The notes under the pieces were generated by a model. The model searched no databases. It was given only the letters and a program-made list of their open reading frames with translations, and was not told where the DNA came from. 17,827 nucleotides of DNA, from the NCBI GenBank assembly GCA_034722435.1, contig JAYENX010000011.1, positions 1 through 17,827 of the forward strand, in the 5' to 3' direction. The stretch comes from Nanobdellota archaeon (GTDB lineage Archaea > Nanobdellota > Nanobdellia > Woesearchaeales > JAHWHD01). Made by a program: the position numbers and the translations under genes. Below are positions 15,024 to 17,269 of this stretch, piece by piece (position 1 is the stretch's first letter; every line of letters starts with the position of its first letter).

Positions 15024-16511
15024 TCACCTAACGCTCTTTAATCCTAAATTTTTGATATTTTTCATGATTTCTTCTTCATTTGTTTTTTGAGATATACTGC
15101 AAAGTAATGCGAGATTTTTTCTTAAACCAATATTTGTACCTTCTGGAGTTTCAACTGGACAAAGTCTGCCCCAATGTGTTGAGTGAAGTTCTCTTGCTTC
15201 AAAGTTTTCTTGTGAAGTGCTAAGAGGTGAAACTACTCTTTGAAGATGTGATAATGTTTGAAGATGGTTAAGTCTAGCAATTCTTTGACTGATACCTTTT
15301 CTTCCGCCAACCCAGTTACCTGTTGCCATAGATGAGTACATTCTTGAAGTAAGAAGTTTCTCTCTGATAATTACTTTTATTGAAGGGAATTTACCTCTCT
15401 TAACAATTCTTTGGAAATTGTATAAAAGGTCTCCAATAAGTACTTTGATATTTACTCTTAGTAAGTCTGCTAAAAGGTCGCCTGAAAGTTTAAGACGTTT
15501 ATTCATATAATGGTCTTTATCGTCAACCTTAATTTCTTTAGTTGAGACCATAATAAATTTCTTAAGGATTTTGCATAAATTGTATGCTTTGAAAATTCTA
15601 TCTTCTTGACTTATGCCTAAATGAGGAATAAGATATTTGTCAAGGATTTCTTGCATCCTTTCAACTCTAATTTCTTTAGCTTGTGTGATGCCTATCTTTT
15701 TTGCAATATAATCTAAAGCGTCTTCTTCTGTTTTAATATCTACAAATTCGAATAAGTTTACAAATATGTCGTCATATTGTTTTTCTTCGGAGATGAATCT
15801 CATAATTTCTTCATCTTTTAATAATCCTAAAGCTTTAATAACGACTATTAAAGGAATTCTTTTTACTCTTGTGAAAGTAAGATAGAAAATACCGTCTTTC
15901 ATTTTTTCAACTGTGTGCGGTATCTTATATGAACCACGTTCAGAGAACAATCTGCCTACATATTCTGATACCCCGATTGAAGCTTTGCTAACAAGAAGTT
16001 TGTTTGCTGCAAGATCTTCAATATTGATGAGTACTTTTTCTGAACCATTAATAATGAAGTAACCACCTGGATCATCAGGATCTTCGTTTTTCTCAATAAG
16101 GTCGTCTCTGGATAATTTGTAAAGGTGACAATATTTAGATTTGAGCATGATTGGCAAGTTTCCTATTTGTGTAGTGAAACTTTCTCTTTGAACTCCGTTA
16201 ATATGTGCAGAAACTTCTATGAACATAGGTGCAGAGTATGTTATTTTTCTTAATCGTGCTTCTGAAGGGTAGATAGGCCTTTTTGAACCATCTGCTTCAG
16301 TAATTTCTGGTTTTTGTACCCATACTTTGTCAAGTTTTATTTTGAATTCGTCTATATCTTGAGGAATGATGGTTGGTTCAACTTCTTTATTTTCATCAAT
16401 GATTTTTTGAAGTTCTTCTTCAACAAGGTTGTTGAATGATTCAATATCTGAATCTATAAATACTTGTTCTTCGAAATGTTTTTTGATAAGAACTTGTCCA
16501 GGCTTATACAT
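15024..16511 (-). CDS. rpoB2: DNA-directed RNA polymerase subunit B'' (Rpo2 N-terminal half)
   Basis: PSEARLRKITYSAP, DPGGYFIINGSEKV, HWGRLCPVETPEG. ATG at 16511 is preferred over the start at 16520 because the GAGGTG SD is correctly spaced; overlaps the rpoH 3' end. Confidence 0.98.
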   Translation of the reverse strand: MYKPGQVLIKKHFEEQVFIDSDIESFNNLVEEELQKIIDENKEVEPTIIPQDIDEFKIKLDKVWVQKPEITEADGSKRPIYPSEARLRKITYSAPMFIEVSAHINGVQRESFTTQIGNLPIMLKSKYCHLYKLSRDDLIEKNEDPDDPGGYFIINGSEKVLINIEDLAANKLLVSKASIGVSEYVGRLFSERGSYKIPHTVEKMKDGIFYLTFTRVKRIPLIVVIKALGLLKDEEIMRFISEEKQYDDIFVNLFEFVDIKTEEDALDYIAKKIGITQAKEIRVERMQEILDKYLIPHLGISQEDRIFKAYNLCKILKKFIMVSTKEIKVDDKDHYMNKRLKLSGDLLADLLRVNIKVLIGDLLYNFQRIVKRGKFPSIKVIIREKLLTSRMYSSMATGNWVGGRKGISQRIARLNHLQTLSHLQRVVSPLSTSQENFEARELHSTHWGRLCPVETPEGTNIGLRKNLALLCSISQKTNEEEIMKNIKNLGLKSVR

Positions 16512-16758
16512 TGATAACACCTCTATAATATTCTGAAGTAATTGCAGTTACACTTTCTCTCACTATTTTCACAACATCTCCTTCTTTAACTTCCATACCT
16601 GCAAGTGAAGGATCGATAAGGTTTATTTTAGGAAGTTCATTGAATGTTATTTTATATTTAGAAAAGAGGTTTTTTCTCTCTTTATCACTTAAAATTGAGT
16701 GTTTAGGTTTTAATATGTGATGTTTGATGACCAATGCCGCTTTTGTTTTTCTTGCCAT
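16504..16758 (-). CDS. rpoH: DNA-directed RNA polymerase subunit H (Rpo5), 84 aa
   Basis: HILKPKH..LPKI..DP..GDVVKIVRESVTA...YYR; GAGGGG SD before ATG 16758. The ORF-track extension to 16848 runs into tRNA-Lys and is an artefact. Confidence 0.95.
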   Translation of the reverse strand: MARKTKAALVIKHHILKPKHSILSDKERKNLFSKYKITFNELPKINLIDPSLAGMEVKEGDVVKIVRESVTAITSEYYRGVINV

Positions 16759-16804
16759 ATAGTTCCCCTCTGTAATATGAAATAATGAAATGGGCCGGAC
16801 GGGA

Positions 16805-16818
16805 TTTTCGTTTGAAAC
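16805..16818 (-). other. tRNA-Lys T-loop intron (59/60), 14 nt
   Basis: GTTTCAAACGAAAA; central helix UUCG/CGAA; bulges AA^G and AA^U. Confidence 0.9.
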
Positions 16819-16840
16819 TTCGAACCCGCGACCACTCGAT

Positions 16841-16853
16841 TTCTTCAATGAAT
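16841..16853 (-). other. tRNA-Lys anticodon intron (37/38), 13 nt
   Basis: ATTCATTGAAGAA; central helix CUUU/GAAG; bulges UA^A and AA^A. Confidence 0.9.
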
Positions 16854-16871
16854 TAAAAGTCGAGTGCTCTA

Positions 16872-16891
16872 ATGCCCGAAGTTTATCTTCT
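16872..16891 (-). other. tRNA-Lys D-loop intron (19/20), 20 nt
   Basis: AGAAGATAAACTTCGGGCAT; central helix GCCU/GGGC; outer helix GAAG/CUUC; bulges GG^A and AU^U. Confidence 0.88.
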
Positions 16892-16927
16892 CCAGGCTGA
16901 GCTACCGGCCCTGTGTTGAGTACAAGG

Positions 16928-16946
16928 CCAAATCAAAATGATTTGG
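16928..16946. repeat. Perfect 8-bp inverted repeat (CCAAATCA-AAA-TGATTTGG) in the tRNA-Asp/tRNA-Lys spacer
   Basis: Read directly; extends by two G-C pairs with a 1-nt bulge. Confidence 0.85.
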
Positions 16947-16970
16947 ACCAGGCTAACGCCCTGGCCGGGA

Positions 16971-16992
16971 CTTTCAGGATCATCACAATCTT
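16971..16992 (-). other. tRNA-Asp T-loop intron (59/60), 22 nt
   Basis: AAGATTGTGATGATCCTGAAAG; central helix UUCA/UGAA; bulges AA^A and AG^U; inner GAUU/GAUC helix. Confidence 0.9.
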
Positions 16993-17032
16993 TTTGAACC
17001 CGGGTCGAAGCCTCGACAGGGCTTCATGATAG

Positions 17033-17052
17033 TTCTCGCATTTAAGCAATGT
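17033..17052 (-). other. tRNA-Asp D-loop intron (20/20a), 20 nt
   Basis: ACATTGCTTAAATGCGAGAA; central helix CUCG/CGAG; outer helix CAUU/AAUG; bulges GC^A and AA^C. Confidence 0.9.
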
Positions 17053-17269
17053 GCCGAGCTACACTACCAGGGCATAAAACATCTTTTTTGTGAGTCGATA
17101 AGCTATAAGAAGCTTATTTAACCCATAAGAAAGATATTTCTAGCATGTTTCGTTGAGAAAAAGTAGTGATATATAAATGTTTCTATTCTTTTCATATTAA
17201 TACATATATTCTATAGATTTTCTAGACTTTATAGTTTATAAATTTTGTGGAAAACTAGGTGGAAAATAA

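Follow-up and report, generated by a model that had tools for sequence, protein, structure and literature searches.

A three-intron tRNA-Lys(UUU) gene, of a kind common in Woesearchaeales, in a genome with one detected alpha-type splicing endonuclease

Archaeal tRNA genes can be interrupted by up to three introns, at sites that include 20/21, 30/31 and 59/60, and such genes are known chiefly from Thermoproteales (PMC4033280, PMC4090602, PMC3239211). As relayed in two of these sources, Sugahara et al. (2007/2008) described genes with no more than three short BHB-type introns, located at 37/38 and at non-canonical sites such as 59/60 and the D-loop; a considerable proportion of the genome's tRNA genes is interrupted in this way, and these genes escape standard finders (PMC4033280, PMC4090602). 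The gene that we describe here, and the genome that carries it, are alike in all these respects. Site 19/20, which is occupied in our gene, is not among the sites listed in PMC4090602, while 20/21 is. Thermoproteales belong to TACK and possess an (alpha-beta)2 EndA with the Crenarchaea-specific loop (CSL), whereas the present host is a DPANN archaeon with a single alpha-type EndA devoid of CSL.

Closer in lineage is ARMAN-2 (Ca. Micrarchaeum acidiphilum), whose pre-tRNA-Cys(GCA) contains a 13-nt hBH intron at 59/60 that is cut in vitro by an epsilon2 EndA (PMC3239211). Our locus resembles it in its DPANN host and in having, at 59/60, a relaxed hBH intron of minimal length (13-14 nt). The epsilon2 enzyme has three units and depends on its ASL loop to handle relaxed motifs (PMC3488258, PMC12397907). 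The alpha4-type enzymes, according to the literature, do not cut such motifs (PMC3239211, PMC5829648). Kaneta et al. (2018), whose survey includes one Woesearchaeota genome, noted alpha4-type EndAs in DPANN lineages with more disrupted tRNAs, and incomplete predicted tRNA sets that needed manual curation (PMC5829648). Their lineages and our host share a single-subunit EndA, many disrupted tRNAs and incomplete standard tRNA sets. The disruption trend was credited there to "L3," a loop specific to Nanoarchaea and ARMAN-2 (PMC5829648; loop located by PMC3488258). The individual tRNA genes and intron sites do not appear to be described in PMC5829648.

The window, i.e., the whole stretch of 17,827 nucleotides that we analyzed, is an entire contig (C11) of a 1.30-Mb genome with 33% G+C, assembled in 60 contigs and 94.5% complete. 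The RpoB'' encoded by a neighboring gene has relatives at 72-80% identity in Candidatus Woesearchaeota, Nanoarchaeota and Candidatus Nanoarchaeia archaea, and the host is therefore a Woesearchaeales-type DPANN archaeon. This agrees with the DPANN-like lineage put forward in an earlier note made from the DNA letters alone, the relatives being recorded as Candidatus Woesearchaeota / Nanoarchaeota archaeon. On the minus strand, a G+C-rich island of 121 nt (16911..16791) has rpoH on one side and another G+C-rich island (17073..16957) on the other. At the level of sequence, we confirmed this island as a real tRNA-Lys(UUU) gene in four exon pieces, with three short introns predicted to be spliced by proteins.

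The 121-nt pre-tRNA body (16791..16911) does not encode CCA. All of its parts are on the minus strand. Exon 1 (16892..16911, 20 nt) comprises the acceptor 5′ strand, the D-stem 5′ strand and the D-loop up to G19, and is followed by intron 1 (16872..16891, 20 nt), at position 19/20 in the D-loop. Exon 2 (16854..16871, 18 nt) runs from U20 to A37 and includes the anticodon UUU; intron 2 (16841..16853, 13 nt) occupies the canonical position 37/38 in the anticodon loop. Exon 3 (16819..16840, 22 nt), from A38 to A59, provides the anticodon-stem 3′ strand, the variable loop, the T-stem 5′ strand and the T-loop, which is interrupted at 59/60 by intron 3 (16805..16818, 14 nt). Exon 4 (16791..16804, 14 nt) contributes U60, the T-stem 3′ strand, the acceptor 3′ strand and the discriminator A73. 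In pre-tRNA numbering, the introns are at 21-40, 59-71 and 94-107.

Joining the four exons (20+18+22+14) yields 74 nt, which ARAGORN calls tRNA-Lys(ttt), with stems of 7/4/5/5 bp; a sixth pair that it reports in the anticodon arm is the closing 26:44 A-U. Inspection by eye revealed U8, A14, G18G19, U33, a GTTCGAAT T-loop and a discriminator A, with the D-loop AGCCUGGUA, the anticodon loop CUUUUAA, the variable loop UGGUC and the T-loop UUCGAAU. Intron removal thus restores a canonical cloverleaf, collinear with intron-less orthologues. The three insertions of 20, 13 and 14 nt that the earlier note had recognized in the D-, anticodon and T-loops, located at 19/20, 37/38 and 59/60, were borne out by this call on the spliced product. 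Its junctions (CCTGG|TAGAGC, TTTTA|ATCGAG and TTCGAA|TCCCG) are correct, as is its claim that a cut after the second bulge nucleotide gives the proper tRNA-Lys. Repeated A's allow junction 2 to shift by 1 nt and junction 3 by 2 nt with no change of the product.

Other splice solutions, with fewer or shifted introns, were weighed against this one: for example, excision of the D- and T-loop introns only, or removal of 15 nt from the variable region in place of the 13-nt anticodon-loop intron. ARAGORN accepts the corresponding products of 87 nt (introns 1 and 3 removed) and 72 nt as tRNA-Lys(ttt). However, the 87-nt product retains 13 extra nucleotides in the anticodon loop, and the conserved 5-nt variable loop UGGUC is missing from the alternative products. 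Nor do these products agree with the eight orthologues that have no intron, all of which align collinearly with the 74-nt form. Moreover, an intron recurs at 37/38 in 34 of the 89 orthologues described below, with 3-4 of the 4 central pairs. We consider such solutions very improbable. A blind enumeration of BHB motifs in the 121 nt, with 4/4 central pairs and an outer helix of at least 3 bp, produced 9 candidates, which could be combined in 15 length-compatible ways; ARAGORN accepted several of these, the three-intron solution among them.

For scoring, the four nucleotides preceding the two exon nucleotides of the 5′ bulge were paired with the four preceding the last two intron nucleotides. 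By this measure, each of the introns has 4/4 central pairs, together with a 3′ bulge of 3 nt and a predicted cleavage position after the second bulge nucleotide, and their outer helices are the D, anticodon and T stems of the tRNA itself. A 4/4 central helix is expected in about 2% of random placements; here it is seen in 3/3 introns, and in 37/41 orthologous introns at 19/20, far beyond chance. In intron 1, the central helix GCCU/GGGC is flanked by the 5′ bulge GG|A and the 3′ bulge AU|U, and an inner helix, GAAG/CUUC, forms 4 bp over a 5-nt loop. An A14.A21 mismatch separates the 3′ bulge from the D stem. The same mismatch is present beside the 3′ bulge in 41/41 orthologous 19/20 introns and is therefore a tolerated feature of this site.

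Intron 2 (central helix CUUU/GAAG, 3′ bulge AA|A) has the anticodon stem as its outer helix and no inner helix, its 5′ site lying in a 9-nt loop. In intron 3, the central helix is UUCG/CGAA and the bulges are AA|G on the 5′ side and AA|U on the 3′ side; the T stem serves as its outer helix, and its inner helix has at most 2 bp over a 3-nt loop. A strict hBHBh' motif, which is a 3-4-3 arrangement with helices flanking it on either side, calls for a 5′ splice site within a 3-nt bulge that an inner helix closes, and this is seen in intron 1 only. Intron 1 is thus predicted to be close to strict hBHBh', and introns 2 and 3 to be relaxed forms (hBH/BHL for intron 2, hBH for intron 3). The earlier view that each intron has its own BHB motif, with a 4-bp helix and 3-nt bulges, holds for the central helices and 3′ bulges of all three, but the 5′ bulge and the strict motif belong to intron 1 only. 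The BHB-consistent fold is valid at -37.6 kcal/mol. It is not the minimum, as the MFE fold reaches -50.4 kcal/mol; in the latter, the acceptor, anticodon and T stems and the intron-3 helix are kept, but the D stem is gone, and the helices of introns 1 and 2 are shifted such that their 5′ bulges vanish.

The gene eludes standard tools. The unspliced 121 nt were not recognized by ARAGORN, and neither ARAGORN on the whole window nor Rfam at its gathering threshold found the gene. With Rfam at E<=10 on 16650-17200, the sole match was a chance HgcE at 11.8 bits. The expectation that default annotation may miss this tRNA was thus borne out by these ARAGORN and Rfam searches. In the whole genome, the Rfam tRNA model found 10 genes above threshold and ARAGORN -i found 15, some of them spurious; about a dozen tRNAs are all that standard tools call in this genome, although it is 94.5% complete. 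Annotated Woesearchaeales genomes appear to miss many tRNAs unless a multi-intron search is applied.

The gene downstream is affected as well. rpoH (16504..16758, minus strand, 84 aa) begins 32 nt downstream of tRNA-Lys with an ATG at 16758, just preceded by GAGGGG, and its complete Rpb5_C domain begins at residue 11 of this 84-aa form. The longest mechanical ORF (16504..16848) starts with a TTG inside the tRNA gene and covers exons 3-4 and introns 2-3. ORF calling does run rpoH into the tRNA, as had been pointed out: the intrusion amounts to 30 codons, and the Rpb5_C domain fits the 84-aa form. In annotation, rpoH thereby acquires a false 30-codon extension at this locus.

To place the gene in its order, we splice-aligned the spliced tRNA-Lys to 120 loci, consisting of 40 same-order genomes and 80 named loci, for which the search was limited to the stretch just upstream of rpoH/rpoB. 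ARAGORN confirmed a spliced tRNA-Lys(ttt) at 96 of the 120 loci, representing 89 distinct genes, and in nearly all of the 80 named loci the gene is just upstream of rpoH/rpoB. The exons are nearly invariant among the 89 orthologues, exon 1 being identical or near-identical, and the introns are free to vary in sequence and length. Their number ranges from zero (8 genes) through one (28), two (27) and three (23) to four (3 genes), some of the four-intron solutions probably being aligner artefacts. At least three introns are thus found in 26/89 orthologues, and the exact combination 19/20 + 37/38 + 59/60 occurs in nine. A genome of the same genus (G001, locus L002; unpublished, depositors' permission needed) has introns of 16, 12 and 31 nt at the same three sites.

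The commonest D-loop site is 19/20, occupied in 41/89 orthologues by introns of 13-89 nt. An intron at 59/60 (13-83 nt) is equally found in 41/89, and 37/38 is used in 34/89, with lengths of 12-48 nt. Introns at 20/21 (12/89) and 30/31 (19/89) have 4/4 central pairs in 12/12 and 19/19 cases, respectively, and a few orthologues have introns around 42/43. The earlier note had called three-intron tRNAs rare and position 19/20 unusual; within Woesearchaeales, neither description applies. Going by these predicted structures, a three-intron tRNA-Lys is common in the order and the present gene is ordinary for it, with intron sites that appear to turn over quickly.

Intron helices vary in a compensatory manner. 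At 19/20, the central helix also occurs as GCUU/GAGC and GUCU/GGAC. At 59/60, a T-loop with UCCG goes with an intron ending in ..GGA in 7/8 cases, UUCG mostly with ..GAA, and UUCA with UGAA; exon position 55 thus covaries with its partner in the 59/60 intron. The T-loop UCCGAAU, with C at position 55, is found in many Woesearchaeales tRNA-Lys genes, e.g., at loci L053, L059-L061, L068, L074 and L088. In tRNAs, U at this position (pseudouridine 55) is almost invariant.

The history of the sites was approached by counting minimum state changes on a single-protein FastTree of RpoB'' with 63 taxa, a rough tree, and comparing them with 300 label shuffles. Site 30/31 required 3 changes (shuffled mean about 14), 19/20 required 13 (about 19), 37/38 required 16 (about 20) and 59/60 also 16 (about 21). 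On this rough tree, which is only indicative, the 30/31 intron appears bound to a clade and 19/20 shows moderate phylogenetic signal. The weak signal of the 37/38 and 59/60 introns suggests, with the same reserve, that they were frequently gained and lost.

The locus is the only lysine tRNA gene that we found. A genome scan for anticodon arms of Lys tRNAs, which allowed for UUU as well as CUU and for an optional intron at 37/38, returned this locus alone. When Lys(UUU) and Lys(CUU) queries were splice-aligned to all 631 G+C-rich islands (233 kb), no second Lys gene emerged, the next-best matches being tRNA-Ala(UGC) and a three-intron tRNA-Ile(GAU). Neither approach found a tRNA-Lys(CUU); this tRNA may be absent, with UUU reading both Lys codons, or its gene may be within the missing ~5% of the genome. 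More generally, the sequence absent from this 94.5%-complete genome could include another Lys tRNA gene or a partner of EndA. Two candidates were rejected. A "tRNA-Lys(ttt)" with a 1742-nt intron, called by ARAGORN -i on contig C59, is taken to be a false positive, as neither the anticodon-arm scan nor the spliced alignment shows a Lys anticodon arm or Lys-like gene at that locus. A 95% match to exon 1 at C56:47603-47711 is tRNA-Ala(UGC) with a 59/60 intron.

As the sole Lys tRNA found, 16911..16791 is a gene on which the genome depends, which argues strongly against a decaying pseudogene in which the insertions are debris and no tRNA is made. That reading draws on the failure of standard tools to call the gene. 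It is hard to reconcile with exons that are perfectly compatible with a cloverleaf, with a place before rpoH that is kept across the order, and with compensatory changes that maintain the intron helices. An intact tRNA-Lys(UUU) elsewhere, proposed earlier, together with exclusively unspliced transcripts, as the mark of a pseudogene, was not found in the 94.5%-complete genome, and we regard decay as scarcely credible.

The second G+C-rich island is a tRNA-Asp(GUC) gene with two introns (16957..17073, minus strand), 45 nt upstream of tRNA-Lys, whose spliced product of 75 nt is called tRNA-Asp(gtc) by ARAGORN. Intron 1 (17033-17052, 20 nt) is in the D-loop after nucleotide 21, with a CUCG/CGAG central helix and a 4-bp inner helix; intron 2 (16971-16992, 22 nt) is at 59/60. 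The 20-nt D-loop intron, being consistent with a BHB, was preferred to an automatic solution with a 23-nt excision after nucleotide 15 and a product of 72 nt. This gene was also missed by ARAGORN and Rfam. The order Asp-Lys-rpoH is seen in relatives, tRNA-Asp being directly upstream at L010 and L011, the two loci whose alignment shows it, and tRNA-Asp and tRNA-Lys are probably part of one transcript. The 45-nt spacer between them (16912-16956, minus strand) contains a 7-bp hairpin, CCAAATC-ATTTT-GATTTGG, which might act as a signal for processing; a TATA-like box is not evident ahead of tRNA-Lys.

Other tRNA genes of the genome were surveyed by a T-arm/acceptor scan with BHB enumeration, a crude census with many AT-rich false candidates and several ambiguous solutions, which we used only for cleanly resolved genes and not as a count of the introns in the genome. 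The tRNA-Ile(GAU) that emerged from the spliced alignment (G000:C31:35786-35930, plus strand) has three introns, after product nucleotides 20, 38 and about 42-46. A tRNA-Arg(UCG) (G000:C36:29305-29473, minus strand) has three introns of 24, 25 and 46 nt at 19/20, a 37/38-like site and 59/60. In the crude enumeration, Gly(UCC), Ser(UGA), Leu(UAA) and Ala(GGC) each received a solution with two introns, and an intron at 59/60 was proposed for many genes. The multi-intron style of tRNA gene thus appears to be genome-wide.

We then turned to the splicing enzymes. A single gene (G000:C58:50280-50807, minus strand), coding for 176 aa from the first in-frame ATG, matches both PF01974 and PF02778. Its product, EndA, carries both Pfam domains and, by alignment to the M. 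jannaschii alpha4 EndA (PDB 1A79), the catalytic Tyr/His/Lys triad. The best solved relatives are NEQ205 (PDB 3IEY_A; E=7e-36) and 1A79 (E=8e-32); with the latter it is collinear over residues 8-176. A protein search of the genome with EndA detected no paralogue at E<=10. The absence carries weight, since the same query does pick up the structural subunit of N. equitans, at E=9e-14. A second PF01974 match, on contig C22 (E=0.3), looks by eye like an M23-peptidase-like ORF and is not an EndA subunit. Across the order, 39 of 41 genomes have exactly one PF01974 match, including single-contig genomes that are 99-100% complete. The ligase RtcB is present (G000:C25:36993-38276, 566 bits).

None of the loops associated with broad specificity is present in this EndA. 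Crenarchaeal alpha subunits with the CSL exceed it by 6-12 residues over the span that is collinear with 1A79. The alignment shows gaps at the NEQ205 basic loop (residues 90-98), the ARMAN-2 loop (240-247) and the ARMAN-2 ASL region (158-168). Thus, unlike the epsilon2 enzyme of ARMAN-2, the present EndA is made of one unit and has neither ASL nor the 240-247/NEQ 90-98 loop. NEQ205 works with a structural subunit and its basic loop, a loop that the present EndA lacks. In 11 relatives (one of them, L134, from the unpublished G001), EndAs share the segment FRVYDRG[VI]KPG[ED]DHA[KR]W; here as in these relatives, the Tyr-His spacing is 10 as in M. jannaschii, with no insertion, in contrast to the "L3" case set out in PMC5829648. 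The earlier note had called for an alpha2beta2 or epsilon2 endonuclease; the genome instead offers one alpha-type EndA devoid of paralogues at E<=10 and of specificity loops. Gene content suggests that the order uses a plain alpha4-type EndA, which we infer to be a tetramer.

We propose, with a probability of roughly 0.88, that this locus is a functional tRNA-Lys(UUU) gene, the only one found, whose three introns are cut by the single alpha-type EndA and whose exons are joined by RtcB. In each intron, the four nucleotides before the last two would pair with four loop nucleotides just upstream of its own 5′ splice site. The resulting 4-bp helices would lengthen the D, anticodon and T arms and leave a 3-nt bulge at each 3′ splice site; the 5′ site of intron 1 would also lie in a 3-nt bulge, and those of introns 2 and 3 in small loops. 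EndA would cut after the second nucleotide at every site, RtcB would ligate the four exons into the 74-nt tRNA, and CCA would be added later. Splicing at the predicted junctions and the action of EndA alone are both what we infer from sequence.

The M. jannaschii EndA is described as strict for hBHBh', whereas the enzyme here faces the relaxed introns 2 and 3, which it may be unable to process alone. A partner that has escaped detection might do part of the work there, such as a structural subunit that has diverged, an additional RNA-binding protein or some other nuclease. Published assays (PMC3239211, PMC3488258, PMC5829648) tie hBH/BHL cleavage to (alpha-beta)2 or epsilon2 enzymes with a CSL or ASL loop, and an EndA devoid of CSL, ASL and the NEQ/ARMAN-2 loops, in an assembly that is 94.5% complete, leaves room for such a helper. 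The paralogue search and the single PF01974 match per genome described above speak against it, and alpha4-type enzymes have already been noted in DPANN lineages with many disrupted tRNAs (PMC5829648). We find a partner unlikely.

For the order as a whole, we see about an even chance that a M. jannaschii-like EndA, without CSL/L1, ASL/L2 or the NEQ-ARMAN-2 loop/L3, is the sole endonuclease of Woesearchaeales and cuts the relaxed introns of essential single-copy tRNAs. Multi-intron tRNAs are a kind already known; the mismatch between relaxed introns and a loop-less EndA characterizes the whole order and is not peculiar to the present locus. If EndA does act unaided, the loop-based model of co-evolution between EndA and tRNA introns would be incomplete, and a fourth structural basis of broad specificity would have to be added. 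One small EndA and 121-nt substrates with three motif grades make a clean and cheap test system for the substrate range of the enzyme.

The endA gene is arranged head-to-head with a gene for an RNase Z-like metallo-beta-lactamase (L021:1979-2947, plus strand). This divergent neighbor has matches to the Pfam domains Lactamase_B_2 and Lactamase_B and to a tRNase Z domain, placing two tRNA-processing genes side by side.
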